36,911 nt of DNA from positions 1 to 36,911 of the forward strand of contig JAZRAB010000097.1 in the NCBI GenBank assembly GCA_045634345.1. Reading direction: 5' to 3'. Made by a program: the position numbers and the translations under genes. The first letter of the stretch is position 1. Each line of letters starts with the position of its first letter. The DNA comes from Candidatus Flemingiibacterium sp. Its GTDB lineage: Bacteria > Bacillota > Clostridia > Oscillospirales > CAG-272. Below, one piece after another: positions 9,545 through 34,382 of the stretch. Under the pieces are notes generated by a model. The model was not told the DNA's origin. It worked only from the letters and a program-made list of their open reading frames with translations, and made no database searches.

Positions 9545-9573
9545 TTGATTTTATCTGATTTGTGTGATATAAT
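9545..9573 (+). promoter_or_regulatory. sigmaA promoter P2 of the peptide/surface operon
   Basis: TTGATT-17 nt-TATAAT with extended TG. Confidence 0.6.
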
Positions 9574-9728: not shown

Positions 9729-9860
9729 ATGAAGAAGTTTGAAATGCCCGAGATCCAGGTTGAGGTTTTTGCCATTGCCGATGTTATCACTGTATCTGCA
9801 ACTGATACTGAACCTGTTAACCCCGGCAATAGCCAGCTTCCTTTCCTGCCCGGAGTTTAA
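9729..9860 (+). CDS. 43-aa RiPP-like precursor peptide MKKFEMPEIQVEVFAIADVITVSATDTEPVNPGNSQLPFLPGV (not in ORF track)
   Basis: Strong RBS GAAAGGAGG at 9710-9718. Leader F-x-x-P-x-I resembles the lasso YxxPxL RRE motif, followed by DVIT-V-S. The C-terminus is identical to that of the next gene, and a PqqD/RRE gene and a peptidase gene lie downstream. Confidence 0.85.
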   Translation: MKKFEMPEIQVEVFAIADVITVSATDTEPVNPGNSQLPFLPGV

Positions 9861-9883
9861 TCTTTGGTTATGGTATTTCAATT

Positions 9884-9966
9884 GTGACATTATTGATGTC
9901 ACGTTGAAAATCCCCCTGGGCTTTGACCCGGGGCATGTGTTCGAAAATTATAGCGAACATGTGCCC
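9884..9966 (+). other. Cluster of three stem-loops between the peptide gene and the SLH gene
   Basis: GTGACAT/ATGTCAC (9884-9902), CCCTGGG/CCCGGGG (about 9913-9933), and a 13-bp stem GGGCATGTGTTCG/CGAACATGTGCCC (9931-9966, two G-U pairs). Confidence 0.55.
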
Positions 9967-10104
9967 GAGGTCGAAGTTATATGTTTTTTGAACATTGTTA
10001 TGGACGCGGTGTTCTCGTTTAACACATATTGTTCATTTTGGTTTGCTAGTTAAAATAAAAAATATCATAGACAAAAAATTTATAACTAGGACGTGGAGGT
10101 TACT

Positions 10105-10992
10105 ATGAAAAAGAGAATTATAAGTTTACTTACTGCCATCGCGTTGACTGCATCTGCAGCATACGCAATTGCTGCGCAGGCGGATGAGCAGAAGGAATAT
10201 ACTGCGGACGCTCTTAACGAGTTGGGGCTTTTCCTTGGAACAGGAAACGGATATAATCTTGAGGGCAAGCTTGACCGTGCATCAAGTATTACTTTGATTA
10301 TAAGAATGCTCGGCAAGGTTGACGAGGCTCTTGAAAATGCAGATAGCTATGTAACTCCTTTTGTTGATGTCCCCGGATGGGCTGTTCCGTATGTCGGTTA
10401 TGCATATGAGAATAATATTACAAAGGGTACAGGTGCGGATACCTTCTCACCGGATGCAGAGGTTACCGAAGCAACCTTCCTTACACTCGCACTGCGTGCG
10501 CTCGGCTATAAGGATACCGGCGAAAATCCGCAGTTTGTTTGGAATAATCCGTATGATCTCGCCAAAGAGGTTGAACTTATCGCTACCGATAAAGCTGCTG
10601 CCGCTGCAGGAGATTCCTATTATCGCGCAGACGCTGTAGAGGTTTTCTGGAATGCACTCGGTGCAGAGCTTGCTGATAATTCCATGACACTTGCGGACAG
10701 ACTTATCGCGCAGGGTGTTTTCACTGCGGATGAATATGAACAGGCAAAGCTGATCAAGGAAGATGGTCCCGATGCGGATGATGCCGATACCACCGCAGAA
10801 CCCGAGGATACCACCGCAGAGCCAGAGGATACCACTGTAGAATCTGGCAATTCGAATAGCAATCAGCTTCCGTTTTTCCCGATGGAACCCGATGCCGAGC
10901 CGGAGGAGACCGATGAAGATAATACAGATGATTCGTCAAATGCTGGCAATGAAGGCAATAAGAATCAGCTTCCTTTTCTTCCGGGCGTTTGA
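10105..10992 (+). CDS. Secreted S-layer homology (SLH) domain protein with acidic Thr-rich tail ending in QLPFLPGV
   Basis: Signal peptide MKKRIISLLTAIALTASAAYA. SLH-like repeats (PFVDVPGWAVPYVGYAYENNITKG...FSPDAEVT; LFLGTGNG...LDRA; YRADA). GGAGGT RBS before 10105. Confidence 0.85.
   Translation: MKKRIISLLTAIALTASAAYAIAAQADEQKEYTADALNELGLFLGTGNGYNLEGKLDRASSITLIIRMLGKVDEALENADSYVTPFVDVPGWAVPYVGYAYENNITKGTGADTFSPDAEVTEATFLTLALRALGYKDTGENPQFVWNNPYDLAKEVELIATDKAAAAAGDSYYRADAVEVFWNALGAELADNSMTLADRLIAQGVFTADEYEQAKLIKEDGPDADDADTTAEPEDTTAEPEDTTVESGNSNSNQLPFFPMEPDAEPEETDEDNTDDSSNAGNEGNKNQLPFLPGV
10786..10842 (+). repeat. 21-bp in-frame tandem repeat (about 2.7 copies) encoding DTTAEPE
   Basis: GATACCACCGCAGAACCCGAG / GATACCACCGCAGAGCCAGAG / GATACCACTGTAGAA. 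Confidence 0.9.
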
Positions 10993-11067: not shown

Positions 11068-11775
11068 ATGAGCCAATATTACCGTGTTGCTGACCTTATA
11101 GTCGAAATGGATTCATTTGGGCGTACGGTGAGTCAGGCTGAACCTTACCGTGTGGACGGTGAGTTTAAGCCGGATATATGTATTTCCGTTGATTGGCGTC
11201 CATTAAAAGAAAATCAGCCGCACCTTTCGGAGGAAGACTGCGAATACATTGAGACCGGTGCATCCTTTTATCATCAGCTTGTAAAGTTTGACGGTATGTT
11301 CCTTCATTCATCGGCGATTGTGATGGATGGAAAGGCGTATCTGTTTTCCGCACCGTGCGGTACCGGTAAATCTACACACACAGCACTGTGGCGGAAGGTT
11401 TTTGGCGAGGACAGAGTTCAGATGCTGAACGATGACAAGCCGGCGCTTCGTCTTGTTGACGGAAAATGGTATGCTTACGGAACCCCGTGGAGCGGAAAGT
11501 ATGATATAAGCTCTAATATTCGTGTTCCTCTTGGCGGAATCTGTATTTTAACTCGCGGGAAAGTTAATAAGATTGAGCCGTTTTGTGGAGCAAAAGCAGT
11601 GAGCGCACTGCTAGAACAAACAACAAGGCAAAAAAATGTTGCATTTATGCAAAAAATGCTCGATTTACTCGACAAACTTATAACAGATGTTCCGATATGG
11701 CGGCTTGAATGTAATATGGATCCTGAGGCGGCTATATTATCGCATCGTGTGATGTCCGGAGAAGCGGACAAATAA
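11068..11775 (+). CDS. HprK-related P-loop kinase/ATPase of the type found in RiPP clusters
   Basis: FLHSSAI catalytic His, Walker A APCGTGKST and MLNDD acidic pair, matching the HprK/PEPCK-like fold. GGAGGA RBS. Confidence 0.75.
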   Translation: MSQYYRVADLIVEMDSFGRTVSQAEPYRVDGEFKPDICISVDWRPLKENQPHLSEEDCEYIETGASFYHQLVKFDGMFLHSSAIVMDGKAYLFSAPCGTGKSTHTALWRKVFGEDRVQMLNDDKPALRLVDGKWYAYGTPWSGKYDISSNIRVPLGGICILTRGKVNKIEPFCGAKAVSALLEQTTRQKNVAFMQKMLDLLDKLITDVPIWRLECNMDPEAAILSHRVMSGEADK

Positions 11776-11804: not shown

Positions 11805-12068
11805 ATGAAACTGAAATCCGGATTTATTCTCAGAGAGGTTGCGGGAACTTGCGTTGTTGTTCCTACCGGTGCTGAGCTTGATTTCAACGGAATGATTACT
11901 CTTAATGAGACCGGAAAGACGCTTTGGACTTGTCTTGAGAATGAAACAGACGAGAATGCGCTTACAGCGGCACTTCTTGCCGAATATGATACAGATGAGG
12001 CTACTGCGAGAGCAGGCGTTACGGCTTTTCTCGGTAAGTTGAGAAAACATGGCTTCATTGAAGAATAA
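11805..12068 (+). CDS. PqqD family peptide chaperone / RiPP recognition element (lasso B1-like)
   Basis: 87 aa with F-ILREVAG, ITLNETGKTLW, LLAEYD and FLGKLRKHGFIE, a typical PqqD pattern. Confidence 0.88.
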   Translation: MKLKSGFILREVAGTCVVVPTGAELDFNGMITLNETGKTLWTCLENETDENALTAALLAEYDTDEATARAGVTAFLGKLRKHGFIEE

Positions 12069-12519
12069 AGAGACTTCACTTGACTCATTAATGCCGATTA
12101 TTCGCGAGCAGCTTGCGCAGGGCGGTGATGTGACGTTTTCTCCCAGGGGAACAAGCATGTTGCCGATGCTTCGTCAGGGGAAAGATACGGTTACGCTGTC
12201 ACCCATAAACGGTCGCTTAAAAAAGTATGATCTTCCGCTTTATCGCAGAGATAACGGTCAATATGTGCTTCATCGTATAATAAGGGCAGGGGATACTTAT
12301 ACCTGCATTGGTGATAATCAGTTCCAACTTGAGCGCGGTATACGCCATGATCAGATGATAGGCGTTGTAAGTGCTTTCAACCGTGAGAAACAGGTGGTAA
12401 AGGTTACTGATTTGTCATATCGCCTTTATTGCCGTGTGTGGTGTCTCTCCAGACCGTTCCGTTACCTTTATTTTCGCGCTATTACTTTGAAAAGTCGGTA
12501 TTTGAAAAATAATGAATAG
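12049..12519 (+). CDS. S24/S26 family peptidase (signal peptidase I-like, no N-terminal membrane anchor)
   Basis: RGTSMLPML catalytic Ser box, YVLHRII (His general base) and GDNQ box. Overlaps the PqqD gene by 20 nt. Confidence 0.8.
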   Translation: MASLKNKETSLDSLMPIIREQLAQGGDVTFSPRGTSMLPMLRQGKDTVTLSPINGRLKKYDLPLYRRDNGQYVLHRIIRAGDTYTCIGDNQFQLERGIRHDQMIGVVSAFNREKQVVKVTDLSYRLYCRVWCLSRPFRYLYFRAITLKSRYLKNNE

Positions 12520-12610
12520 TATTATCAATAAATGTGCTTGCGCATGAGTGCTTGATATAAGTTTGCGCATAGCATTTTATACTATATATTAAATGGCAAA
12601 GGGGATTTTT

Positions 12611-13480
12611 ATGAATTATCAGTCAACTAATGAGATGAATGAAGTCGAAGCTGTAGAAGTCGATTTGTTTGATCTTATAAAATTGCTGTGGGAAAAACTG
12701 TGGATAGTCGTTTTGTCCATGATCGTTTGCGGTGCTATTGCATTTTCTGTATCAATTTTTGCAGTTACACCGATGTACAGTGCGTCCGCGATGCTGTACG
12801 TAAACAATAGTTCAGCGACCGTCAGCGGCATCCCGATTACAATAAATTCATCACAGCTTTCAGCAGCAAGGGCACTCCTCGATACATATGTGGTTATCTT
12901 AAAAACGAGAACCACTCTCGAAGCAGCGATAGAAAAGGCTGATCTACCATATTCCTACAATGAACTTCAGGGGATTGTTTCCGCTGAGTCTGTAAATGAT
13001 ACAGATATTTTCAGAATCACCGCAACCTGTGCTGACCCCGACGACGCAAAGCTTATAGTTGACACCCTTGTTGAGATTCTTCCCGACAGAATTTCTGATA
13101 TCGTTGACGGAAGCTCGGTGCGCATCGTTGACCGCGCCGTACGACCGGTAGGGCGTTCATCACCGTCATATACGAGATATGCAGTTATCGGTGTTATTAT
13201 CGGCGCTGTGTTAAGCTGCGCGATAATAATAATCGAAGACCTTACGAATACAAGCGTGCGAGATGAGGAATATCTCAAGATGAGATATAATATTCCGATC
13301 CTTGCCGTGATTCCCGAGGCATATGCTGTTTCAAAGAAAACGTACGGTTATAAATATGCTTACAGATCAAGGTATAAATACGGTTATCATGGCAGATATG
13401 GCTATAATCGAAATACGCATGGTAACATATATGAACAGAGTTATGAGCAGGCTCAGAACGGAATAGGTGGCGACAAATGA
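12611..13480 (+). CDS. Polysaccharide co-polymerase / chain-length regulator (Wzz/CpsC/YveK family)
   Basis: EVDLFDLIKLLW, TM1, TPMYSASAMLYV, SSP...TM2 and IPILAVIP, plus an extra Tyr-rich tail. Confidence 0.88.
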   Translation: MNYQSTNEMNEVEAVEVDLFDLIKLLWEKLWIVVLSMIVCGAIAFSVSIFAVTPMYSASAMLYVNNSSATVSGIPITINSSQLSAARALLDTYVVILKTRTTLEAAIEKADLPYSYNELQGIVSAESVNDTDIFRITATCADPDDAKLIVDTLVEILPDRISDIVDGSSVRIVDRAVRPVGRSSPSYTRYAVIGVIIGAVLSCAIIIIEDLTNTSVRDEEYLKMRYNIPILAVIPEAYAVSKKTYGYKYAYRSRYKYGYHGRYGYNRNTHGNIYEQSYEQAQNGIGGDK

Positions 13481-14406
13481 AATTAAATGATAAAAAGGCA
13501 AATGCCTATGAAAAAGCTGCCAAAGCTGAAAGCAAGAAGATATCAAAAGCAGATAAGAAAAAGAATGGTCCTTCTATTGAAGAAGAGGCGGCAACCATCG
13601 GAAAGAACCGCTCATTTGCAATGGCGGAAGCCCATAAGCGTCTGCGAACCAATATAATGTTCAGCTTTGCGGATGACAGTGAATGCCACATTATCGGTGT
13701 TACAAGTGCTATGGCACACGAAGGTAAAACTACCACGTCCATAAATCTTGCTTATGATTTAATGAAAGCAGGAAAAAAGACGCTGCTTATCGACGCGGAT
13801 ATGCGCTTGTCACGTATTCCAAAGCTTCTTGAGATCGAAGCGGCGCCAGGACTCAGTAATATGCTTGTCGGTAAAAACGATAATCAGAACGTAGTGCGCA
13901 CGATTACAGCTCATGATGGGCTTCAACTGATTACCTGCGGCGATATTCCGCCGAACCCGACGGAGCTTCTCTCGTCAAAGCGCTTTGAACTTTTGCTTAA
14001 TGCTCTTAAAGAAACATATGAATATATTGTAGTTGACCTTCCTCCCGTATCGGAGGTCTCGGATGCGCTTATTGCATCGAAGCTTGTGGACGGTATGATA
14101 GTTGTCGTGAGACAGGATTATGTTGATAAGCGCTTGCTTGACGATACCATTCATCAGCTTAATCTGAGTGGTGCTCGTATTATAGGTCTTGTAATGACAT
14201 GTGCGCAGTACAGGACAAAATACGGAAAGTATAAATACAAGAAGAGCGGCGGATATAAGTACGGCTACCGCGGCGGTTACGGTTATGCTAAACGCTCCGG
14301 CTACTATTCAAGGGGAGCCTATAATTATCATCATTCTCCCTACAGCTACGAATACGCCCAGCACCATCAGCATCATAAAAATCAGAACAGCTCTAAAGAA
14401 GAGTAA
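13477..14406 (+). CDS. BY-kinase, CpsD/CapB family tyrosine-protein kinase
   Basis: EAHKRLRTN, Walker A AHEGKTT, Walker A' LLIDAD, Walker B IVVDLPP and a C-terminal Tyr cluster. Confidence 0.92.
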   Translation: MKLNDKKANAYEKAAKAESKKISKADKKKNGPSIEEEAATIGKNRSFAMAEAHKRLRTNIMFSFADDSECHIIGVTSAMAHEGKTTTSINLAYDLMKAGKKTLLIDADMRLSRIPKLLEIEAAPGLSNMLVGKNDNQNVVRTITAHDGLQLITCGDIPPNPTELLSSKRFELLLNALKETYEYIVVDLPPVSEVSDALIASKLVDGMIVVVRQDYVDKRLLDDTIHQLNLSGARIIGLVMTCAQYRTKYGKYKYKKSGGYKYGYRGGYGYAKRSGYYSRGAYNYHHSPYSYEYAQHHQHHKNQNSSKEE

Positions 14407-14409
14407 TGT

Positions 14410-15195
14410 ATGAAAGAAGAGATTCTGCAACCCCCCTCGCGTTTTATTCCTCGTGTGGATTTTCATACACATATTTTACCGCAGGTCGATGACGGAAGCA
14501 GCTCGCTTGAAGAAAGTGTGCAAATGGTGCAGGCTCTTGCAAAATCAGGTGTCACGTGTATCGCTCTTACGCCGCATTTTTATCCGCAGTATGATGATCC
14601 CGAACGGTTTCTTGCAAGACGTGACCGCGCATTTGCGGATCTTCGCAGTGCGGTTATAGCCGACTCGGATATTTCACATGTTCATCTTATTCCGGGTGCG
14701 GAGGTAGAGTATTTCGACGGTATTGCTTGTATGAAAGACTATCCCGGGCTAAAACTCGGGAAGACCAAATGCTTGCTTGTCGAGATGCCTCACGGCGAAT
14801 GGACATCACATATGGTTGACGATATTCTTCAACTTAACAACAGTGGGATTTTCAGAGTGGTTATTGCTCATGTTGAGCGGTATCTCTTTTCGCAAAAAAG
14901 GGATGTTATACATACCCTCATTGACGATGGGGTCATAATGCAATCCAATACGGATTTCTTCATTGATCGCAGAACCTCCGGAAAAGCTGTGCGGATGTTA
15001 AAAAAAGGTTTGATACATATTCTTGGTACCGATTGTCACAGCATGACAATGCGTCCGCCGAGCATTCAGGAAGCGTGCGATATTATAATCAAGCGCGCAG
15101 GAGAAGACGTACTTCAGGGAATAATGTATAGAGCACACGATCTGCTTGTCGATGATATACAGATTGTTGCTGATAGCACTTCTGTACAGGTGTAG
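14410..15195 (+). CDS. PHP-family protein tyrosine phosphatase (CpsB/YwqE)
   Basis: DFHTHILP, DDG, TPH, AHVERY and GTDCH metal-binding motifs. Confidence 0.92.
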   Translation: MKEEILQPPSRFIPRVDFHTHILPQVDDGSSSLEESVQMVQALAKSGVTCIALTPHFYPQYDDPERFLARRDRAFADLRSAVIADSDISHVHLIPGAEVEYFDGIACMKDYPGLKLGKTKCLLVEMPHGEWTSHMVDDILQLNNSGIFRVVIAHVERYLFSQKRDVIHTLIDDGVIMQSNTDFFIDRRTSGKAVRMLKKGLIHILGTDCHSMTMRPPSIQEACDIIIKRAGEDVLQGIMYRAHDLLVDDIQIVADSTSVQV

Positions 15196-15199
15196 ATTA

Positions 15200-16120
15200 A
15201 TGAAGAGTAATTACAAGATCAAATATATAATCTTACTTTGTGTATGTCTTAACTGCATCGGTGTTTGTTTATATCTTAATTTTTTATACCAGACGAAGAT
15301 GCAGGATGACGGCGATTCACTTGAATCCCTGCGAGACTCAATAAAGCAGTACGAGTCAATCATGCTCGATGCAAACACCACGGCGCCTGCGCCCACTACA
15401 GAGGATGCTGGAGCGACTCCCGATACAGAGCCGGACCCGTTTATTACTGTCGATACGACCGAGGCAGATTCTGTAGAGACTACGGTAAGACCGCAGGTCT
15501 ATAAGCCGTCGGCTACCTTGAATTTCGATAAGCTTTGGGCGGTCAATCCCGAAATACACGCTTGGATAGACATTGAGGGGACAAAGATTGATTATCCTAT
15601 TCTGCAGAGTAAGAATAATGACAGAAAATATTTAAATACCGCATATGACGATTCTCCGTATATCGGAGGCGCGATATTTACTCAGGCGACATATAATAAT
15701 ACCGACTTCAATGATCCCGTTACACTCATTTACGGACATACGATGCGGTCGGGAACAATGTTCGGACAGCTTCAAAAAAGCTATTCGAGCGTACAGTCGT
15801 TTGAGGAAAACAGCGATATTGTGATATATCTGCCCGGTGAAGTCAGACATTATACTGTTTTCGCCGCAGTACCGTATGATGCGATGCACATACTTCATAC
15901 ATACGATTTTTCGAACACCTATTGGTACAACCGATTTTTCGATGATGTTGGACGAATCCGTGAAATAGGTGCGAATTTTGACAGAGAGGCTTTCCCCGAA
16001 GCGGGTGATCGAGTTATCATCCTTTCGGTTTGCTTAAATGAAGATACTGCCAGAAGATATCTTGTTATGGCAGCCTTCGAGGAGGATCTCGCAGACAATG
16101 CGAGGGATTCCAAAAACTAA
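15200..16120 (+). CDS. srtB: Class B sortase
   Basis: N-terminal TM, Thr/Pro/acidic linker, WIDIEGTKIDYPILQ, IYGHTM (His), ILSVC (Cys) and RYLV (Arg). Start moved to MKSNYK. Confidence 0.85.
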   Translation: MKSNYKIKYIILLCVCLNCIGVCLYLNFLYQTKMQDDGDSLESLRDSIKQYESIMLDANTTAPAPTTEDAGATPDTEPDPFITVDTTEADSVETTVRPQVYKPSATLNFDKLWAVNPEIHAWIDIEGTKIDYPILQSKNNDRKYLNTAYDDSPYIGGAIFTQATYNNTDFNDPVTLIYGHTMRSGTMFGQLQKSYSSVQSFEENSDIVIYLPGEVRHYTVFAAVPYDAMHILHTYDFSNTYWYNRFFDDVGRIREIGANFDREAFPEAGDRVIILSVCLNEDTARRYLVMAAFEEDLADNARDSKN

Positions 16121-16153
16121 ATTATATAATTTTTTACAAAGGAGATATTTGCT

Positions 16154-16855
16154 ATGAAGGCTTTACGCATTGCGACGATTTTACTTATTGTTGTGGCTTC
16201 GTTTGTTATGGCAGCCAATGCTGTGGAGTTTACCCCTAGTGTTGAAATTAAGGATGGACCTGAGATTATTGATCCTACTGATCCGGATGATCCTAAAGCA
16301 AGTGAGGACGAGTTAGAGATTACTCCGGTTGGACGCCTTGATGGTGAAGACCTTGATGAGGATATTAAAGACAATCTTACTGATGCAAAAAAAGACCTTG
16401 AGGAGAACGATTGGGAAGATATCCTTGATGATTTCGAGGACATATGGAATGAAGCTACCGACGGTGCCCCTGTTGAACATGCAATCGTCAGTGATATTTT
16501 CGATGTCCGCTATAAAGAAGATCCCACTGAGGACGGAACCGTTACAATTATGTTTGACATGAAAATGCAGGGGCTTGATTCGGATGATATTTTTGTTATC
16601 ATTGCTAAGCCAGAGGGCGGTGAATGGGCACCTATTGATTATACAATAAGCGAAGACGGAATTATAACCATTACCGTTGAAAACAAGTCAGTCTTTGCAA
16701 TCATTAAAGATAAGAGCGCAATGCCTGACATTGGCCCCGACGGTCCTGCTACAGGCGTTAGTCCGTATTTTGCTCCCGCAATTGTCGGTGCTGTATTCTT
16801 CGGTATTGCCGCTGTGGTTTGCGTGAATAAGATAGCTAAAAAAACAGAGAGATGA
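16154..16855 (+). CDS. Acidic cell-wall-anchored protein, probable substrate of the adjacent sortase
   Basis: Signal peptide MKALRIATILLIVVASFVMAANA. C-terminal GPATG followed by a hydrophobic segment and a KIAKKTER basic tail. Confidence 0.75.
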   Translation: MKALRIATILLIVVASFVMAANAVEFTPSVEIKDGPEIIDPTDPDDPKASEDELEITPVGRLDGEDLDEDIKDNLTDAKKDLEENDWEDILDDFEDIWNEATDGAPVEHAIVSDIFDVRYKEDPTEDGTVTIMFDMKMQGLDSDDIFVIIAKPEGGEWAPIDYTISEDGIITITVENKSVFAIIKDKSAMPDIGPDGPATGVSPYFAPAIVGAVFFGIAAVVCVNKIAKKTER

Positions 16856-16881
16856 AAATTCAGTTGAAAGGATGCTAGAAA

Positions 16882-17865
16882 ATGAAAAACAGAAAACAGC
16901 CAAAAGGTATATTTATTGTTGCTGTCTTACTTGTTTTGCTTGTGTCCTTGATCGTTGTCTTTTCGCTTGTCGAAAAGGCTATTAACCACATGAATGAGCT
17001 GCCCGATTCGCCTGATTATACCGATTCGGGCAACTCTCGCATTTACTATAATGATCACTGGTATACTCTCAATGAAAATATAGAGAGCATTCTGGTGCTC
17101 GGCATTGACTCGATGACAACACCGGACGGCTCGAAGGCTGATTCGCATCAGGCGGATTTCATTGCTTTGCTTGTCGTCGATAAATTGGATCACAGTTTCC
17201 GTGTTCTCTATATTAACCGCGATACTATGACTGAGATATCTCAGATTAATGATATCGGCGAGCAGTATGGCACATTCACCGCACAGCTTGCCTTGGCGCA
17301 TGCATACGGAAGTGACGGAAAGATGCGATGTCGCAATACCGTTTCTGCAATCGAGCATTTACTCTATGGTACTAACATTGACCATTATTTCTCCGTCACA
17401 ATGGATGCAGTCCCGATAATCAACGACAGTCTTGGCGGAGTGACAGTGACGCTTGAGGAAGATCTTCCTGCACTTGGCGAAGAGTTTTTGAAAGGCGCAG
17501 AGATCACCCTTAAAGGTGCAGACGCGCTTTCGTTTGTCCGCTGGAGAAGTGACGAGGCGGAGCAGAGTAATCTCGGCCGTATGGAGCGTCAGCGTCAGTA
17601 TATTGCGGCGTTCTTTGATAAATATACGACGGCGGATCTTGAAGATTCCTTTGAAACAATAACAGATATCGACGAATATATTGTTTCCGACTGCACTTTT
17701 AACCAACTTACGCTTCTTTTGGAGCGTCTGCAGGGATATTCACATAAAGGTACATTCTCTCTTGAGGGCGAAGCTGTCAAGGGAAGTGAGTATATTGAAT
17801 ATTACATTGATGAAAATGCGGTACAGGCTACAGTTGTAGATCTTTTTTATAAAATTGAGGAGTGA
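16882..17865 (+). CDS. LytR-CpsA-Psr (LCP) family glycopolymer transferase
   Basis: N-terminal TM, ILVLGID, ADFIAL, INRDT, LAHAYG, GGVTV, FVRWR and RMERQRQY. Confidence 0.9.
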   Translation: MKNRKQPKGIFIVAVLLVLLVSLIVVFSLVEKAINHMNELPDSPDYTDSGNSRIYYNDHWYTLNENIESILVLGIDSMTTPDGSKADSHQADFIALLVVDKLDHSFRVLYINRDTMTEISQINDIGEQYGTFTAQLALAHAYGSDGKMRCRNTVSAIEHLLYGTNIDHYFSVTMDAVPIINDSLGGVTVTLEEDLPALGEEFLKGAEITLKGADALSFVRWRSDEAEQSNLGRMERQRQYIAAFFDKYTTADLEDSFETITDIDEYIVSDCTFNQLTLLLERLQGYSHKGTFSLEGEAVKGSEYIEYYIDENAVQATVVDLFYKIEE

Positions 17866-17874
17866 CAACCTACA

Positions 17875-19917
17875 ATGAACAACAAATCTAATGGTATAAT
17901 GGAGGGCAATGATGAGGCAACCTCACGCAGACAGCCACATCTCCCACTCCAGATATATGATTTAATATTGCTGATTGCAGCAGTTGTTCTGTTGCTTGGA
18001 TTTAATCCGAGCAGTGCGGAAAAGTTCGGCATACTCCCTTTGGCGATTCATTTATTGCTATCTTATATATGTATTTTGTCATTCAGATCATTCGGCGGCG
18101 TTTATAGGCAGATTTGGCGATATAGCTCTCCGTTTTCGTATATAAGATTAATTACTTCCGATCTTTTCGCAGGAATTGTATATTACATACTTGTTCAGAT
18201 CCTTCCGATCGAAAAAATTGCGTTTGTACGTGCTTTTTCGCTTGTTGCATTAAATCTTTTACTTGCTGTAACAATACGTCTTTTGTATCAATTTTTATAT
18301 GAGCGTGCAAACAGACCCGGTAAGAGTTCATCTTTTTGGCGCTCTACTATGAAGCTTATGACCGGTCTTTCGTTTGACAATGAAAATGCCGGCAAAGCTT
18401 CTGAAGGTGCTTCAACAAATAACAAAATAAGAATCGCAATTGTTGGCGCAGGACAAGTTGGAGCTATGCTTGCTGAAGAGCTTATCAAGAATCCGAGAGC
18501 AGCTTACATACCGTGTTGCTTTATTGACATAGACCGTTCCAAGATAGGACGTGAAATTTACGGTTTGCCGGTTTTTGGTGGAGATAATGAGGTGGCACAA
18601 GCCCTTTCAGCACTTTCTGTGCAGGAAATCGTATTTGCTCTGCCTTGCGTTGAGCCTGAACATATAAAAAATCTTTATGAATACTATAAGAATACCGGAT
18701 GCAAGATCAAGGTGTACGACTATCCGGTAATGCAGACCGCCGATAAGAGCAAACGCCAAATGCGTGAATTTGATATTGAGGAATTGCTCTTCCGTAAGCC
18801 GATTGTGGTTAACGATGACCGAACGAGGGCTTATTATAAGGATAAAGTGGTCTTGATTACGGGCGGCGGCGGTTCGATAGGCAGTGAGCTTTGTCGACAG
18901 ATTGCGAGAATGGAACCAAGAGCGCTGATTATTCTTGACGTTTATGAAAACGGCGCATATGATATCCAACAGGAGCTACGAATTGCCTATGGCAACAAGC
19001 TCAAGGTCAGTGTAGAGATTCTTTCCGTATGTGATAAGTCCGGAATGGAGAAGGTTTTTAAGGCATACAACCCACACATTATTCTGCATGCGGCGGCGCA
19101 TAAACATGTTCCTCTGATGGAGCATAACTGCTGTGAGGCGGTTAAAAATAACGTGTTTGGTACGCTCAATGTGGTTGAGTTGGCTGAAAAGTACAATGTC
19201 GAGCGTTTTATCATGATTTCCACTGACAAGGCAGTTAATCCGACCAATGTAATGGGTGCTACCAAGCGTGTCTGCGAGATGATAATTCAAAGCCACAGCC
19301 GTACTGCGAAAACTACTACATTCAGTGCGACAAGATTCGGAAATGTCCTCGGAAGTGCCGCATCTGTCGTGCCGCTCTTTAAGAGACAGATTATGAACGG
19401 CGGTCCCGTTACAATTACGGACAAGCGCATAATCCGATATTTCATGACTATTCCCGAAGCAAGTCAGTTGGTGCTTCAGTCAGGAGCTATGGCGAAAAAC
19501 GGAGAGCTCTTCGTTCTTGATATGGGCAAATCCATACGTATTCTTGAGCTTGCAGAAACTATGATACGTCTCAGCGGCTATGAGCCATACCGCGATATTG
19601 ATATCGTGGAGACAGGTCTTCGCCCGGGCGAGAAGCTTTATGAGGAGCTGCTTATACGTACCGGTGAGCTTGATAAAACAGAAAACAGCTTGATATTCAT
19701 TGAGCGCGATGCCCCACTGTCAGACAAAGAATTGAATGAACGTCTTGACATTCTTCGCGCCGCGCTTGAAACTATTGATGATGCCGTAGTTAAGGATGCA
19801 CTAATGCGTGTCGTTCCGACATACCATGATCCTAGTTCTGTTAATTCGGATGCTGCCGCGCAGGAGCGAATTGAGAGATTGTCAAGCGCCTCTGAAGGGG
19901 TAACGGTAACTGTATAA
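17875..19917 (+). CDS. CapD/PglF-like membrane-bound UDP-GlcNAc 4,6-dehydratase (polysaccharide biosynthesis protein)
   Basis: Four N-terminal TMs, IVGAG, ITGGGGSIGSEL, HAAAHKHVP, ISTDKAVNPTNVMGATKR, RFGNV and RPGEKLYEEL. Confidence 0.92.
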   Translation: MNNKSNGIMEGNDEATSRRQPHLPLQIYDLILLIAAVVLLLGFNPSSAEKFGILPLAIHLLLSYICILSFRSFGGVYRQIWRYSSPFSYIRLITSDLFAGIVYYILVQILPIEKIAFVRAFSLVALNLLLAVTIRLLYQFLYERANRPGKSSSFWRSTMKLMTGLSFDNENAGKASEGASTNNKIRIAIVGAGQVGAMLAEELIKNPRAAYIPCCFIDIDRSKIGREIYGLPVFGGDNEVAQALSALSVQEIVFALPCVEPEHIKNLYEYYKNTGCKIKVYDYPVMQTADKSKRQMREFDIEELLFRKPIVVNDDRTRAYYKDKVVLITGGGGSIGSELCRQIARMEPRALIILDVYENGAYDIQQELRIAYGNKLKVSVEILSVCDKSGMEKVFKAYNPHIILHAAAHKHVPLMEHNCCEAVKNNVFGTLNVVELAEKYNVERFIMISTDKAVNPTNVMGATKRVCEMIIQSHSRTAKTTTFSATRFGNVLGSAASVVPLFKRQIMNGGPVTITDKRIIRYFMTIPEASQLVLQSGAMAKNGELFVLDMGKSIRILELAETMIRLSGYEPYRDIDIVETGLRPGEKLYEELLIRTGELDKTENSLIFIERDAPLSDKELNERLDILRAALETIDDAVVKDALMRVVPTYHDPSSVNSDAAAQERIERLSSASEGVTVTV

Positions 19918-27569: not shown

Positions 27570-29975
27570 TTATGGAGTAGGTGGGAACTTACTCGCATCA
27601 AAATCGTAGTAATAGCTGAGAGGGAATGCTCTTACCTCACTGTCTTTAAGTAGAAATACCTTCAGTCTGTGCGGCGACGGCTGTGGACAGGTGTCGAAGT
27701 GATACCATGCGCCATCCATTTTTACGAGATTCCAATAGTGCGGACGGTTAGGATCGTTTCGGTGAATCTCAATGTTTTCAATTCCGACGCGGGAGAGAAG
27801 TGCGCTTGCGACTGCATAGTAGGTGTAGCAGTTACCGTAACGCTTTGTAAATCCCGTATACGCCGCTTTGTTGAAGTGCCCCATCAGATGACTTGTTATA
27901 CTTGAATATCTGATATTTTGTCTGCACCAATTATAGATTGCATGTGCTTTATCGCGGTCAGTCATCGAATCGGTAACGATTTTTGCGAGAACCTGATCGG
28001 CAAGGTCATTGACTGACTGACGGCTTATTGCCATAATCGTTACAGTCGTTGTTGCAGTTCTCGTGTTGCCTGAAGAATCGGATGCGGTGTAGGTTACATA
28101 ATATGTTCCTGCAACGCTGTTGTTCACCGCAGACGAATTAACCGTTACAGCAACACTTCCGTCTCGGTCATCCGAAGTATATACTCCGTTTCTGTATAAA
28201 ATCGTTTCACCCTCATAAGCAGTAATCGGCTTTACACCGTAGATAATGGGCTTTGTGGTGTCTTTTATAACATACATCGAAGTGCTCATGCTTGTGAAAT
28301 TGCCGGCTTCGTCTGTTGCTATTATTGTAACTGTCTGCTCTCCGATATAAGAGGTATCAGCTGATTCGGAAAATGTGAAGCTTACCGGCGAGGCATCTAT
28401 GCAGCTTGTTATAAAATCGCTTGCATCCGGAGTAGTACCTAAATAAACATTTGTCGGTTTGACGGCAAGCACAGGCGGAACAGTATCCTCAACCGTCAGT
28501 TTAATCGGTATATGTGAATATTCACCGATGAGAGTTAGTTCGTGCGTGCCTATTCCGAGCTGTTCTATTATAATGTCATCCGCAAGTCGGGGCAGGGGGG
28601 ACTGAACATCCATATGGGAGAAAAGTTCACCCTTAAATACTTCGGTTGAAGTACCTGCTTCTATTAGAAAAGACGATGCAATGTTATGTATGTTGACCTT
28701 TGTTTCAAGCAGGGTGGTGTTCCCATAGGTGTCCTCAAGAATTACAGAGATATTCTGAACTCCTAACTTATCAAAATCAGGCTCAGCGTCAAAACGCTGT
28801 GTGACCTCTGATCTATCGAAAATGTTCTCGGTGAAATCCTCGGGTGAAAGCGTTTGACCGAGAAGAATATCATATTCGAGCACGTCTGCTTTAGGTGCGG
28901 TGGTATCAACAATAGTTACATTGAAAAGACAGCTAGCGCCGTTGAGCTTTCCCTTGATACGGTAAGTGCCGCACTGTGAAAAATCGACACTGTCAAAATT
29001 AAGATCACTGAGCCATTCGAATTTGAGCAGTCTGTCTGCAAGGACAGCCTTTAGTGTACCAAGCTCGGTCTCACAGTGGGTAAGGCGGTCATTTACGATA
29101 AGCTCTGCGGTGGCGGTAGTTTTATTTCCGCACTCATCCACAGCGCGGACAGTGACCGTGCCGCCATTTTCGGTGTCAGCCTTATGCATAAAGCGATATG
29201 TAAGCTCGGTCATATCGTTAGCTTGGCTTATAAATTCTTCCGGGAAGACCTCGGTGCCGCGCGGAACACAGAGTGTCTGCGTTGTAATCCGCGGTGCCTT
29301 GCTGTCTCTTACAACAAGTGAAGAATTAACGGGAATGAATCCGAAAAATTCAAGCTCAAGCGGATGCTTGCCAAGAACGCTTGTATCGATTTTGTCGAGG
29401 TCGGTTTTGACCTCGCAGAAATAATTAAATACCGTCACATCCCTAAGCGGCAGACTTGCATCCTTGCCGATCTCCGTCTTGTGCGGCATTACACCGTACA
29501 AAAGCAGACTTACGATTGGTAAGAGAATGATACCGATGATTATCAGTATAACAATAAGCGCCGTGCGAAGCTTGCGCTTTGCTGAAGTCTTATTTTCTTT
29601 ATCCGATTCCGATTCTTTGTCAGGTTCTGCATCATCTGATGGTTCAGCCTCTGCTTTAGCGACGGATTCCCCTGAAGGTATGTCGGATGATTCTTCGGTT
29701 ACCTCATCAGCGGTGCTGGCATCTGATTTTTCCTCGGTAGCATTAAGCGATTCCGATGCTGCTTCGTCAGAGGGGTCTAAAGTGGCAACAGATGTTTTTA
29801 TCTCCGTATCAGCAGAAGAAGCTTCTTGTGTCACTTGTGCTGCGGCAGATTCTGCCTCAGTGGATATATCCTCAGCCTTGACAGTATCCGGAGTAGCCGT
29901 GACCTGTTTGACAGTGTTATTTGCTGCCTTGCTTCTTTTTGCCTTTTTCTTTTTTGCTAATGCTTTCTTACTCAT
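27570..29975 (-). CDS. Membrane-anchored transglutaminase-like (papain-fold) protein with tandem Ig-like repeats
   Basis: Disordered acidic N-terminus and one TM. Repeats bounded by DSKAP/DTTAP/DTVPP/DTTKP and DxxGN. C-terminal triad GNCY / HYWN / HFD. Confidence 0.8.
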   Translation of the reverse strand: MSKKALAKKKKAKRSKAANNTVKQVTATPDTVKAEDISTEAESAAAQVTQEASSADTEIKTSVATLDPSDEAASESLNATEEKSDASTADEVTEESSDIPSGESVAKAEAEPSDDAEPDKESESDKENKTSAKRKLRTALIVILIIIGIILLPIVSLLLYGVMPHKTEIGKDASLPLRDVTVFNYFCEVKTDLDKIDTSVLGKHPLELEFFGFIPVNSSLVVRDSKAPRITTQTLCVPRGTEVFPEEFISQANDMTELTYRFMHKADTENGGTVTVRAVDECGNKTTATAELIVNDRLTHCETELGTLKAVLADRLLKFEWLSDLNFDSVDFSQCGTYRIKGKLNGASCLFNVTIVDTTAPKADVLEYDILLGQTLSPEDFTENIFDRSEVTQRFDAEPDFDKLGVQNISVILEDTYGNTTLLETKVNIHNIASSFLIEAGTSTEVFKGELFSHMDVQSPLPRLADDIIIEQLGIGTHELTLIGEYSHIPIKLTVEDTVPPVLAVKPTNVYLGTTPDASDFITSCIDASPVSFTFSESADTSYIGEQTVTIIATDEAGNFTSMSTSMYVIKDTTKPIIYGVKPITAYEGETILYRNGVYTSDDRDGSVAVTVNSSAVNNSVAGTYYVTYTASDSSGNTRTATTTVTIMAISRQSVNDLADQVLAKIVTDSMTDRDKAHAIYNWCRQNIRYSSITSHLMGHFNKAAYTGFTKRYGNCYTYYAVASALLSRVGIENIEIHRNDPNRPHYWNLVKMDGAWYHFDTCPQPSPHRLKVFLLKDSEVRAFPLSYYYDFDASKFPPTP

Positions 29976-29992
29976 CTATAAAAATCCCTGTG

Positions 29993-32113
29993 TCAATTAT
30001 TCTTGTTCGGCACACCGTCGCCGTCATGGTAGAGCGCACCGGATTCATCAATACCGGCAATGCAGACAACTCCGACATCAAAGGCTTCCATGTTGCGCCA
30101 ATTGTATGGGTTGCCGTAAGAGCCGCCAATCTGACCCGAGTAAAGCTGGTATGTACCGTCGCGCTTCTCGACGAGAATTGCGGACGCTCCTGCTTTGATA
30201 CGGGTTATATTCTTGGCGCTTTCAACATTGAGAAGACCCATTGAGCGGTAGCCGCGTATCATTACAGTACCGTCGGAGAAGAGCATCACTGTTGTCTGGT
30301 TGCACGCCGCAACATCGACTACATTGCGGTACGGCTCAACATCGCACTGACCGCATGAATTTGAGCCGGTGGCAACGAGCGTTCCGTCGATTTTCAGACC
30401 GACTGTAAACCGCTGACCTGCCGCGACTGCAACAATATCATTCCACGCAGTTACATCGCACTGACCGTATGTGTTATCGCCATACGCACTTACAGTGCCG
30501 TTTGCATGCAAGAGCACAGCGTGGTCCTGACCAAGCATTGCCTGTATAACGTCATCGCTGTTTGGAGCAGTGAAGGGGAGAGCTTCTCCTTCATGGGGGA
30601 TCAGAGCAACCTTGCCGTTTTTGCGCAGTACGATGCTCATGGTTTCATTTGTATCGACAGATACAGCATCGGTTATCTTGGTTCCGGCTATTTTTCCGGA
30701 TTTTATGATACGGACATCATCGTTCCATACCGATATCGACTGTGAATGATATATACGCTTCTGCTCCTCTGTCAGCATCGGATATATAATATCAAGCTCT
30801 GCACGCACACCCGAGTCTCCCGAATCTATGCCTGCCTGAGCAGAGGTTATCTTTGCATATTCGGGATAACGGTCGGCAAGATAAATTATACCAGCGTTGT
30901 CATCAAGAGTTACACAACATTCAATGGCGGCATTTATAGCGTCCTGCTTTGAAATATCGAAGGTTACGATATTAGGAAGCTCATCAATAAACGCTGATGC
31001 TTCATTGTATCGGTTGTTGGATATATAATAGATAAGGGCATCGTTGAACACCGTGTTTTCGTATTTGTCGCGTTCAGACTGCTCGCGCATTTCACTTGCG
31101 ACAAGAAGCGCATTTACATAGTCTCCACGGTTCTTTAATATGTCGCACATTGAGCGTATAATAGACGAAAACTTTTCATCATTCTCAGACATCTTTGCCA
31201 CGCGGAATGCATTCTCATTGATTTTTCCGGTGTTTATATCGACAACACTTGCGGCGGCATAATCGATGATAACATCGCACAGAGAAGAATTTGGCGCACC
31301 GTATGCATAGACATACGATGATTCAAGATCTCCCTTGTCGATATAATATTCGACAGCCTTTTCGCAAACGCGCTGCAGTATACCGTCATACTCGGAGTCA
31401 TACGCGATTTTATATGCTTCATTGAAGCGCCTATCCTTTATAAGCATATCGGCGGAGTTCTTTACTCCGAGATAGCGATAAAGTGAAATTCCGGCGATGA
31501 TCTCAACGATAAACATAACAACAAGTGCAGATAGAATAATCATAAGACGGTGGCGCTTTTTCTCGGGAGAAAGTACGGGCTTTTTATGAGTATTTGCTTC
31601 TGCAACTTTGTTAAGCTGCTGTGATGTATTGCTGCTTGATGCAGGTGTATTCTGCAGTTGAGGTGTATTACGGTTTTTTGCAACCGGACGTCGTACAAAA
31701 CGAAATTCCGAGGGCTCAAATGTAAGCACTTGTCCGCTTGAAAGGGTGATTTCGGATATGTAAGCGCTGCACCCGTCTTTTGTAAGATGTGACGGAACAT
31801 TGCCGGTTATTGTTATAAGCTCACTGGAATTAAGATCATTATCGGTATAACGGTATGTACTGAATTTATGCGCTGTGTCCGGAGCATAGACCGGCAGGGA
31901 TGAAAAACGGTATCTGAAGGTAAAGCTTGAAATTTTCACCGAAAGATCTCGTTTTATAACTATACGCATGGTATCCGAGCTATCGGGATGCTTTATAAGT
32001 GTAATCGAGTGTACCGATGCAGGCGATTTGCGCTCAGGTGGGAGCATGGGGACGGGAAGAAGCATGGATTCTTCTTTGGGAGTATTTTGATAATGTTTTT
32101 CGGTTCTATTCAT
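29993..32113 (-). CDS. Single-pass membrane protein with C-terminal RCC1/BLIP-II-like repeats
   Basis: TM at LMIILSALVVMFIVEIIAGI. Repeats GQDHAVLLHANGTVSAYGDNTYGQC and AGQRFTVGLKIDGTLVATGSNSCGQC. Confidence 0.8.
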   Translation of the reverse strand: MNRTEKHYQNTPKEESMLLPVPMLPPERKSPASVHSITLIKHPDSSDTMRIVIKRDLSVKISSFTFRYRFSSLPVYAPDTAHKFSTYRYTDNDLNSSELITITGNVPSHLTKDGCSAYISEITLSSGQVLTFEPSEFRFVRRPVAKNRNTPQLQNTPASSSNTSQQLNKVAEANTHKKPVLSPEKKRHRLMIILSALVVMFIVEIIAGISLYRYLGVKNSADMLIKDRRFNEAYKIAYDSEYDGILQRVCEKAVEYYIDKGDLESSYVYAYGAPNSSLCDVIIDYAAASVVDINTGKINENAFRVAKMSENDEKFSSIIRSMCDILKNRGDYVNALLVASEMREQSERDKYENTVFNDALIYYISNNRYNEASAFIDELPNIVTFDISKQDAINAAIECCVTLDDNAGIIYLADRYPEYAKITSAQAGIDSGDSGVRAELDIIYPMLTEEQKRIYHSQSISVWNDDVRIIKSGKIAGTKITDAVSVDTNETMSIVLRKNGKVALIPHEGEALPFTAPNSDDVIQAMLGQDHAVLLHANGTVSAYGDNTYGQCDVTAWNDIVAVAAGQRFTVGLKIDGTLVATGSNSCGQCDVEPYRNVVDVAACNQTTVMLFSDGTVMIRGYRSMGLLNVESAKNITRIKAGASAILVEKRDGTYQLYSGQIGGSYGNPYNWRNMEAFDVGVVCIAGIDESGALYHDGDGVPNKNN

Positions 32114-32125
32114 ATTCCCACCCCC

Positions 32126-33274
32126 TTATCTTACAAGCTCATTCTCGGAGGGAACGAGCGGAATCGTGTCAAGCGGATGGTCGGTGGGGAGATAATTTCT
32201 GGTGTTCGCACACTGAAAATGCCACCATTCGGAGTTGATGTACGTGAAGCCACAGGAGGTCATTACATCTGTCATATAGTTCATATTGTCACGTGCTGTG
32301 TCGGTCATATTTTCACTGCTTCGTGCGGAATCGTTTGTGAAGGTATGCATCGGAGTGGGCATTTCTATTTCATTTCCGTCCGAGTCGATAAGAGAAATAT
32401 CAAGCGCAGTTCCGCGGTCGTGTATTCCGCCCATGCCGCGGCTCGGGTCGGCAACCCACTTATGAACGCGCACAACGTCAAACCAACGCTGCTGTACAGA
32501 TGTCGGGCGGTATGCGTCATATATTACGATTGTGTAGCCGTCATTTTTGAATATCTCTATTGCCTTGACAAGCTTTTGAAGGGTATCGTACTGTATAAGA
32601 CAAAGATTGCGGTCATAAAACGGCTCACCGATTGATGTTTCATTTGTGGAGAGCTTCATAGATACTTTTATATCATACCGCGAGAGATCGACACCGGCAT
32701 TTGAAATATTCGTTGATTCATAAACCTTAAGATATTTGCGGATATCGACAAGGTGAGAATATGCATTTATCTTTCTGCCTGTGCTGTCGGGGGCGAGCCC
32801 GGTTTCAATCGGCACTTCAGCATACAGCGTACTGCCGCTGTTTACAGCATGCAAAAAGCCGTCCTTTGCATAACCGAGCAGAACTCCGCCCGTTGAATAT
32901 ACGGTCGCCCACACACTGCCCTCGGCAGGCTCGACGAGATATATTCTCTCGCCCTTGTTGAGTGTGTTGTATGGGTACTGCGCAGTTCTTGTCTGGTATA
33001 TATCCATTTTATCAATGACGGTCATAGGGAACGCTTCACTGTCTGTAAGTATGCAGTTAGGCTCGCTGTTCACAATAGGGGTTATCGCAGCACCGAGCTC
33101 TCCGAAATCAAAGGCTTCGGAGGGAAATTCGATACCGACATGTGCTTTTACATCAAAATCCCTGAAGACGTGATTTTTAGCATCGGAAGAGACAGCACAT
33201 GAATAAAGTGATGTGGAACTTAATATAAGAGCTGCGAGAAGTATAGAGCCGACGGCTCGCTTGTTTCTTTTCAT
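32126..33274 (-). CDS. M15 (VanX/DdpX-like) D-Ala-D-Ala metallopeptidase, probable lipoprotein
   Basis: Signal peptide ending LYSC, IYDAYRP, HDRGTALD (Zn ligands His/Asp) and EWWHF. Confidence 0.82.
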   Translation of the reverse strand: MKRNKRAVGSILLAALILSSTSLYSCAVSSDAKNHVFRDFDVKAHVGIEFPSEAFDFGELGAAITPIVNSEPNCILTDSEAFPMTVIDKMDIYQTRTAQYPYNTLNKGERIYLVEPAEGSVWATVYSTGGVLLGYAKDGFLHAVNSGSTLYAEVPIETGLAPDSTGRKINAYSHLVDIRKYLKVYESTNISNAGVDLSRYDIKVSMKLSTNETSIGEPFYDRNLCLIQYDTLQKLVKAIEIFKNDGYTIVIYDAYRPTSVQQRWFDVVRVHKWVADPSRGMGGIHDRGTALDISLIDSDGNEIEMPTPMHTFTNDSARSSENMTDTARDNMNYMTDVMTSCGFTYINSEWWHFQCANTRNYLPTDHPLDTIPLVPSENELVR

Positions 33275-33291
33275 AGAGAGGATATCACTCC

Positions 33292-34371: not shown

Positions 34372-34382
34372 ATCGCGCCTCC

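Follow-up and report, generated by a model that had tools for sequence, protein, structure and literature searches.

A ribosomal peptide core repeated at the tip of a neighbouring surface-anchored protein in a putative peptide-maturation locus of Candidatus Flemingiibacterium

The 36,911-nucleotide stretch of DNA analysed here (contig JAZRAB010000097.1 of assembly GCA_045634345.1, from Candidatus Flemingiibacterium sp., order Oscillospirales), termed the window, contains a small open reading frame (ORF; 9729-9860, + strand) encoding 43 amino acids that end in ...GNSQLPFLPGV. About 250 nucleotides downstream begins the gene for an SLH-type wall protein of 295 amino acids (10105-10992, +), whose last eight residues are the same. 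Judged from sequence, this locus appears to encode one short epitope in two formats, soluble and surface-tethered, that are kept in step between species. The element held in common is the whole of a lineage-specific peptide core, starting near the predicted junction of leader and core. The genes lie in a 1.76-Mb assembly, in which the window locus is on contig C97, and are followed by genes for three enzymes with putative roles in peptide maturation.

The initial annotation of the window had singled out the eight residues shared by the two C-termini. Both DNA strings that it quoted are exact; the 27-nucleotide string of the peptide gene occurs once in the window (9834-9860), and between the genes the third position differs in four of the codons for the eight residues, as do the stop codons. 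Over the 13 codons that can be aligned in this pair, six are identical, five differ synonymously and two change the residue. Synonymous differences occur in every clear pair from related loci as well (four of 20 aligned codons in genome G028, three of 15 in G014, four of 10 in G013 and four of 15 at locus L091), and the likeness is therefore kept at the protein level, as the annotation had supposed, rather than reflecting a fresh copy. A six-frame scan of the assembly, of the kind that had been suggested, returns QLPF[LF]P four times, three of them at the window locus, and the acidic, threonine-containing stretch said to precede the motif is present at all three of these copies (the peptide, and the internal and terminal positions of the SLH protein's tail). 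The equivalent motifs are similarly rare in the other genomes scanned, which makes two to four occurrences per genome with the window genome included: NQLPLG has two matches in G028 and two in G014, each time the peptide and the tail, G-E-E-D-[VI]-F has two in G013, again peptide and tail, and reversed-pattern controls gave none. With so few occurrences the motif is rejected as a proteome-wide general tag. The proposal that QLPF(L/F)P itself is such a tag also gives way before the orthologous loci, which use ...NQLPLG, ...AGEEDxF, ...VPGGEW, ...EGDNGTGWG or ...NDIADPWG in its place.

The relationship between peptide and tail was followed across 168 related loci, comprising 95 non-redundant loci, to which the screen for a signal peptide and acidic tail was limited, and 73 further ones. 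Loci with both a peptide and an anchored acidic-tail protein formed the co-variation set (n=11); six with an anchored tail and no peptide on the stretch (L034, L037, L040, L050, L079 and L236) were left out, as was G003, whose peptide lies on a different contig. In the window the peptide core ends in NPGNSQLPFLPGV and the tail in GNKNQLPFLPGV. The corresponding ends are VVGGENQLPLG and IVGGENQLPLG in G028, ...CPNQLPLG and ...GGENQLPLG in G014, and ...PDPEAGEEDVFGS and ...DDPDAGEEDIF in G013, where the tail also has an internal ...NAGEEDEF. G244 pairs DPAEGDNGTGWG with ...LPDEGDNGTGWG, the more distant L091 pairs ...DDTLGNKGSVPGGEW with ...NDTLNNLAEVPGGEW, and in G292 the peptide end ...SDNDIADPWG has its copy at a position internal to the tail. 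Weaker matches are seen in G034 (...GDNETAFA and ...GPNDTPFAD), L075 (...NGLPFG and ...NQLPWG) and G020b, where the core starts EIEIGGG... and ...IEIGPGG... stands near the tail end; in G055 peptide and tail do not match. For the window, G034 and G020b, the strings given also include a few preceding core or tail residues.

Each core was scored against the last 45 residues of each tail in these 11 loci. No assignment scores better than the cognate pairing, whose sum was equalled in none of 200,000 random permutations; the co-variation of peptide C-terminus and SLH tail that the initial annotation had predicted for orthologous loci is thus borne out. The cognate tail ranks first for eight of the 11 peptides. 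Six cognate scores (50-62), from six distinct cores, lie above the largest unrelated score of 37, and G014 scores 35. A chance origin of the motif match is rejected on this permutation result together with the genome-wide rarity of the motif.

The match ends no more than two residues from both C-termini in seven of nine pairs, and it begins near the leader/core junction and not at an arbitrary point. The proteins that carry the second copy are anchored in different ways, by SLH domains in the window, G028, G014, G013, G244 (an SLH orthologue), G292 and G020b, by an SLH-like region in G034, by a lipid anchor in L091 (a 140-residue lipoprotein) and G055, and by a membrane segment in L075. What remains of them apart from the anchor is an acidic, low-complexity spacer, some 70 to 190 residues long, with one or two core-like modules. 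As the anchors are non-homologous and the match starts near the leader/core junction, we argue that the arrangement is functional.

A further trace of its history is found in the window pair (QLP-FLP-GV): set against the G028 and G014 pairs (QLP-LG), peptide gene and tail gene show one and the same indel. That it arose twice independently is unlikely, and the sequences suggest occasional exchange between peptide gene and tail, then purifying selection, as the simplest history; the shared indel thus speaks for past sequence exchange as well as for selection. The earlier argument against a recent copy holds, given the synonymous differences, whereas the stronger position that the motif was never copied does not.

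Two further observations concern the motif itself. The fourth QLPF[LF]P of the assembly lies in a stand-alone lipoprotein of 70 amino acids on contig C151 (10638-10850, -; locus L220:839-1051), which has an acidic mature part, ...IQLPFLPFD... nine residues before its end, and neighbours that look unrelated. The lipoprotein beside the module in G055 ends in ...VELPFVPFD, a nine-residue match to the C151 lipoprotein (E 4e-4 in a single comparison).

The 43-residue product has the sequence characteristics of a precursor of a leader-dependent peptide, resembling the RiPPs (peptides made by the ribosome and modified after translation), with a core that is variable, lineage-specific and always acidic. 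A strong ribosome-binding site, AGGAGG, lies 8 nucleotides before the ATG. Translation, ribosome-binding site and a leader profile assign residues 1-23 (9729-9797, +) to the leader, and the remaining 20 (9798-9857, +) form an acidic core, with QLPFLPGV at 9834-9857 and the stop codon at 9858-9860. The leader/core boundary is placed where the profile match ends and is predicted rather than an experimentally known cleavage site. In the window genome the profile from related loci, whose consensus is derived from 29 sequences, matches solely the ORF at 9729 (E 3.8e-9; next best E 6.2), and the first-23-residue profile identifies small ORFs in 31 of the 95 loci (one added by eye) and 11 of the 73 further loci, or 42 of 168. 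Taken as the part after the profile match, 30 non-redundant cores are 10-27 residues long; all 30 carry a net acidic charge, 28 have a hydrophobic residue within the last three positions, and one ends in Ser, the window core ending in Val. A search of five same-genus genomes with the 43-residue peptide gave no match, and the same search also missed the known G020 peptide, so that the blank result is uninformative.

Transcription of the peptide gene may start from a promoter-like site upstream (9545-9573, +), where a consensus scan finds TTGATT, a 17-nucleotide gap and TATAAT with TG; the region contains 11 such sites against a shuffle mean of 8.5, not above shuffles, and the site is weak evidence. 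Between the peptide gene and the SLH gene lies a strongly folding spacer (9872-9994, +) of two hairpins followed by a T-run, with a minimum free energy of -54.8 kcal/mol (z -5.2; none of 200 shuffles equally stable). Its long hairpin is conserved in the alignment with G028 and G014, and an Rfam search of the spacer (9858-10010, +) matched no family. The spacer is likely to be an attenuator or terminator; its appearance is that of an attenuator, in which case transcripts of the peptide would outnumber those of the enzymes. In other loci (L036, L091, L221 and L238), the ORFs directly upstream of the peptide gene encode large proteins (853 to 1909 amino acids on the stretches covered), mostly without Pfam annotation. 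Those of L036 and L091 are related over their C-terminal 300 residues (E about 1e-17), and as a group the upstream proteins are only in part related to one another. None has a homologue in the window assembly.

The SLH protein of the window consists of an N-terminal part (10105-10770, +) with a signal peptide (about 10105-10179, by inspection) and a wall-binding domain (Pfam SLH, E 2.3e-8), and a tail. Pfam scores the SLH domain at 34.3 bits against a cut-off of 20.8, and its position after a signal peptide is that of an SLH-anchored wall protein; across five orthologues the N-domain aligns at 45-58% identity. The tail (73 residues; 10771-10989, +) is acidic, rich in Thr, Pro and Glu, and built of two modules, each with a core-like motif at its end. 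The first of these is a degenerate copy of the core end, NQLPFFP (10861-10881, +), inside ...GNSNSNQLPFFP..., and the second is the terminal copy, NQLPFLPGV (10963-10992, + with its stop codon), where GNKNQLPFLPGV occupies 10963-10989 and the stop 10990-10992. A metagenome scan with the N-domain alignment found 80 loci, all of generic SLH proteins with other C-terminal domains, and none of the 80 has an HprK-like gene or a leader peptide. At L238:3565-4923 (+) and L236:3607-4923 (+) there are two anchored proteins in succession, of which one has a membrane segment and the other SLH domains; each carries an internal ...DPWG... module, and they have in common a second terminal motif, ...D-[DE]-G-W-[ST]-[GA]-I-Y. 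No small peptide bearing this second motif was found on the stretches fetched. In G292 and G149, which have internal copies, two anchored proteins hold a second terminal motif of their own in common.

Immediately after the SLH gene lie genes for three putative enzymes or recognition proteins. The first encodes a P-loop protein of 235 amino acids (11068-11775, +), which structure prediction with AlphaFold2 (mean confidence, pLDDT, 93.4) and Foldseek assign to the PEPCK/HPr-kinase fold (PEPCK, E 1.7e-6; HprK/P, E 3.9e-5). The model thus predicts a PEPCK/HprK fold with a Walker A motif, of which G100, K101 and T103 are invariant in 15 homologues. No Pfam family is matched up to E 10 except a chance-level DUF, and the NCBIfam scores are under their cut-offs (ScmC, 22.7 bits, cut-off 125; HprK_rel_A, 17.3 bits, cut-off 200). 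Measured against HPr kinase-like peptide kinases, this protein therefore has the fold, falls below the curated family model and lies beside a peptide that does not end in Ser. The second is a PqqD-type peptide-recognition element (11805-12068, +), over the Pfam cut-off (E 8.9e-18) and, at 30.6 and 29.9 bits, under the cut-offs of 70 and 80 for the lasso-specific PqqD models of NCBIfam.

The third gene, overlapping that of PqqD, encodes a soluble peptidase-like protein of 156 amino acids with an S24/S26 fold (12049-12519, +) and an invariant Ser36/His75 pair. It has no Pfam or NCBIfam match. In a profile search of the PDB it finds signal peptidase I only (E 0.036 and 0.19), with its G-x-S-M-x-P box aligned to the catalytic box, so that Ser36 occupies the place of the nucleophile; His75 stands opposite the catalytic Lys and replaces it as invariant residue at the position of the general base. 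A Ser/His pair is known from signal peptidases of the endoplasmic reticulum type. Residues G34, S36, M37, P39, H75, R76, G88 and D89 are invariant in 13 homologues, the AlphaFold2 model (pLDDT 83.8) has SpsB, LexA, UmuD and SipA as top Foldseek matches, and the nearest Atlas clusters, as a lead only, are named S24/S26 peptidases. The protein is a candidate leader peptidase. In L046:6340-7482 (+), of G049, the HprK-fold and S24/S26-fold proteins are fused in one ORF of 380 amino acids, and further long open frames over the P-loop match are found in G056 (484 amino acids), G046 (399) and G371 (376).

The module is not confined to the window genome. Relatives of the P-loop protein are found in 28 of 61 related genomes, in 15 of 32 genomes of the genus at E <= 1e-40, and in 129 of 401 sampled genomes of the order, distributed over 58 of 178 genera; in a species-representative collection they occur in at least 583 places, mostly in Oscillospiraceae metagenome-assembled genomes (Candidatus Flemingiibacterium, Faecousia and similar). 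Among the 95 loci, the P-loop protein is accompanied by PqqD in 79, the peptidase-like protein in 72, an ABC exporter in 47 and an NTP_transf_5 nucleotidyltransferase in 23. Two of nine loci with both peptide and anchored copy have the exporter, against 47 of 95 overall; these loci are few and related, and no interpretation is drawn. Within the genus the gene order is peptide, SLH protein, P-loop protein, PqqD, peptidase-like protein and capsule genes, and the capsule genes after the module stand in the same order in G028, G014, G003, G004, G009 and G013 as in the window. At one same-genus locus (L035, in G009:C4) the three enzyme genes and the capsule genes are kept without the peptide and SLH genes, and the stretch upstream of the P-loop gene has a fragment-like ORF, perhaps what is left of a nucleotidyltransferase.

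These components can be assembled into a tentative pathway. The PqqD-type protein would bind the leader, and the S24/S26-fold Ser/His peptidase would then remove it. Signal peptidases select small residues at positions -3 and -1, and a cut of the leader after T-x-S would fit this rule. A common partner would read the shared core, and the first candidate is the adjacent P-loop enzyme with the PEPCK/HprK fold. The only relatives of this enzyme that have been characterised in peptide pathways target the precursor's C-terminal residue, so it could mark both the free peptide and the tail before export. The tethered copy would carry this epitope, possibly in modified form, beyond the wall on a flexible acidic stalk, while occasional sequence exchange between the genes and purifying selection would keep peptide and tail alike. 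The initial annotation had envisaged two export routes, and the components of both are in place: the SLH protein has its signal peptide and SLH domain, and the peptide has a leader beside a PqqD-type recognition element. Its idea of a wall-anchored display also fits the architecture of signal peptide, SLH domain and core-bearing tail, with the reservation that what is displayed is not a common QLPF(L/F)P tag. Taken as a whole, with the adjacent HprK-fold enzyme as favoured common partner, this reading stands for us at an even balance. It can be taken further, and here we would sooner expect to be wrong than right: the soluble peptide of a new leader-dependent pathway may act on whatever reads the Sec-exported tethered epitope, with a private epitope for each lineage. 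The free form would then, to give two examples, release a docked partner or signal 'self' at the cell surface.

Several observations weigh against the pathway. The functions of all three enzymes are read from fold and motifs alone. In the window, G028 and G013 the shared motif is free of Ser, Thr and Tyr, and a Ser end in only one of the 30 cores is unlike the substrates of lasso kinases. When the P-loop protein was modelled together with the final 60 residues of the SLH protein, ATP and Mg, the predicted complex (score 0.02, mark 0.32) spoke neither for nor against the pathway. The anchored protein has no leader for PqqD to bind. Copies removed from a free C-terminus (NQLPFFP in the window, and others in G013, L238 and L236) weaken recognition specific to the C-terminus. 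Background-level scores are found for four of the 11 pairs (G020b 23, G034 27, G055 22 and L075 22, with the non-cognate 95th percentile at 31), G055 being a plain mismatch. Moreover, it was the match itself that drew attention to L091 and G034, and all of the loci are kin, G028 and G014 as sisters, so that the permutation figure exaggerates independence. An anchored acidic-tail protein accompanies just 11 of the 42 peptide-bearing loci, and the anchored twin is therefore an accessory outside the core pathway; in the G061 genome a search for a second copy of the core found the peptide alone. Finally, domain scans of the window ORFs identified no peptide exporter.

The main rival to this pathway dispenses with a shared enzyme. 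In it, the tail would dock an extracellular partner, and the free peptide would bind the same partner so as to release it, block it or signal. Anchored proteins that are made of nothing but anchor, spacer and core, on three unrelated types of anchor, are what a tethered ligand would look like, and internal copies would still work as ligands; this display-like architecture and the internal copies are explained at least as well as by a common enzyme. The ABC exporter in 47 of the 95 loci means that the free peptide is probably exported in many lineages, and the large, mostly unannotated proteins directly upstream of several peptide genes also favour an extracellular partner. On the other hand, no conserved receptor candidate emerges, those upstream proteins having no homologue in the window assembly, the window has no exporter, and the place of the twin inside an enzyme operon is left unexplained; we regard this explanation as possible yet rather doubtful. 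An anchored protein could instead be a second precursor, a Sec-exported pro-form holding one or two cores from which the same peptide is cut outside the cell. Tails with one or two core modules between acidic spacers (in the window, G013, L238 and L236) accord with this, and a cut after the internal module of L238 would give exactly the peptide's C-terminus. An anchor and a spacer of 70-190 amino acids would be odd for a pro-peptide, however, the leader-dependent route would be duplicated, and neither an extracellular protease nor a cognate cytoplasmic receptor is found in the window, which makes such a role unlikely.

The resemblance might also be without function, an evolutionary by-product of paralogous pieces kept alike by repeated gene conversion. 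The genes are only about 250 nucleotides apart, and the indel common to both genes (the window against G028 and G014) is most simply explained by sequence exchange. Conversion alone would nevertheless have to account for synonymous differences in every clear pair, for recurrence with non-homologous anchors, and for a match that stops near the leader/core junction with none of the DNA similarity outside the core that conversion tracts leave, and we consider it distinctly unlikely. Very unlikely, in our estimation, is that the core or the Thr-rich stretch before it serves as an attachment signal, an acceptor for glycan or wall polymer made by the downstream polysaccharide machinery. Within the genus the module does head an operon of Wzz, BY-kinase, CpsB, sortase and LCP genes, Thr-Thr stands just before the core in the leader end and in the spacers, and several cores elsewhere contain N-x-T. 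Yet Wzz is present in 22 of the 95 loci and the module adjoins other genes outside the genus, the cores of the window, G028 and G013 have neither sequon nor hydroxyl residue, and no glycosyltransferase is conserved with the module.

The known systems closest to this locus are the lasso peptide clusters. A lasso core carries Asp or Glu at position 7-9 for ring closure. In the window core, counted from the predicted, profile-based boundary, positions 3 and 5 are acidic and positions 7-9 hold no such residue; the cores of the module in general, on inspection, lack the ring-forming acidic residue at 7-9 and almost never end in Ser, unlike those of tailored lasso clusters. An Asn_synthase cyclase is absent from the scanned window ORFs and from the 22 most frequent gene families of the 95 loci; the window genome has matches to PF00733 on contigs C152, C122 and C111, and not on C97. 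Tailored clusters of Firmicutes (paeninodin and pseudomycoidin type) comprise a precursor, PqqD/B1, B2, cyclase C, an HPr-kinase homologue K, a nucleotidyltransferase N and an ABC exporter (PMC8498205). Their HPr-kinase homologues are reported to phosphorylate the C-terminal Ser of the precursor, acting on the last residue of the linear peptide with little regard for the rest; a nucleotidyltransferase, of the family present in 23 of the 95 loci here, then glycosylates this Ser by attaching sugar to the phosphate (PMC8498205, PMC7533575). The locus described here likewise has a leader-bearing precursor, a separate PqqD, a protein the size of a leader peptidase and an HprK-fold P-loop enzyme, and related loci have the NTP_transf_5 protein (23 of 95) and the ABC exporter (47 of 95). 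Unlike the lasso B2 protein, a transglutaminase-like cysteine protease, the small protein of the window has an S24/S26 fold, a Ser/His pair and no Pfam match, and unlike lasso clusters as described in the literature searched, the window adds a surface-anchored copy of the core. Classification as a lasso peptide cluster is rejected for want of a cyclase and a B2-type protease. The system works most like the tailoring half of the lasso clusters of Firmicutes, yet it lacks the features that define membership. The only NTP_transf_5 (PF14907) gene of the window assembly is separate from the module and opens a short contig (C62:325-1479, +).

Resemblances to other systems are in outline only. Secreted pro-peptides of the Phr/RRNPP type in Firmicutes begin with a Sec signal peptide, end in a short functional peptide at the C-terminus, and have a cognate cytoplasmic TPR receptor encoded beside them. 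The SLH protein shares the Sec signal and the short C-terminal peptide with them, and differs in being anchored (by SLH domains here, as a lipoprotein or through a membrane segment elsewhere), in its long acidic spacer and in the presence of a second, leader-dependent gene; the Pfam scan of the window ORFs found no TPR-type receptor. Multi-core RiPP precursors such as those of cyanobactins similarly hold spacer-separated modules in a single polypeptide, as do the one or two core-like modules here, but the multi-core protein of the window has a Sec signal and wall anchor in place of a leader and adjoins a single-core precursor that does have one. C-terminal sorting signals (LPXTG with sortase, PEP-CTERM with exosortase) are found in polysaccharide loci, and the window matches this picture in its short conserved C-terminal motif on a low-complexity, Thr-rich surface protein in a polysaccharide locus with a sortase. 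Unlike such signals, the motif is itself the end of both proteins (their final eight residues), has neither a hydrophobic segment nor a basic tail behind it, and occurs in 2-4 places per genome. A sortase signal is rejected because the motif ends the protein and the sortase has an adjoining candidate substrate of its own.

The module of the window is followed by co-oriented capsule and wall-polymer genes (12593-19917, +) encoding Wzz-like, BY-kinase, CpsB phosphatase, sortase, candidate sortase substrate, LCP and Polysacc_synt_2 proteins. The sortase (15146-16120, +) has its best NCBIfam match to class B at 122.6 bits, under the cut-off of 153.75. Next to it (16154-16855, +), an acidic secreted protein of 233 amino acids has at its C-terminus the motif P-A-T-G together with a hydrophobic segment and a basic tail; the two form a candidate private pair of sortase and substrate in the capsule operon, conserved in six same-genus loci. 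A further run of envelope genes on the opposite strand (27570-35792, -) includes an 801-residue protein that combines an Ig-like surface domain with a transglutaminase-like core, a protein of RCC1 repeats, one resembling D-Ala-D-Ala dipeptidases, and an AlgX-like SGNH protein adjoining an MBOAT acyltransferase.

In the literature searched, we found no description of a RiPP-like module of this composition (leader, acidic core, PqqD, candidate peptidase, candidate tailoring enzyme and often an exporter), nor of what appears from the sequences to be a ribosomal peptide core repeated, and co-varying, at the tip of a neighbouring surface-anchored protein. If the proposed functions are correct, gut Oscillospirales would possess a widespread and uncharacterised peptide-maturation module, in which an enzyme of the signal-peptidase fold acts where lasso pathways use a cysteine protease. 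Encoding a core both free and as the tip of a surface-anchored protein, with the two kept in step, would be a design principle so far unreported for ribosomal peptides. The co-varying pairs constitute natural specificity sets, with six distinct cores. Synthetic peptides based on them would make binding or modification directly testable, and the pairs might be a lead to surface recognition between strains in the gut.

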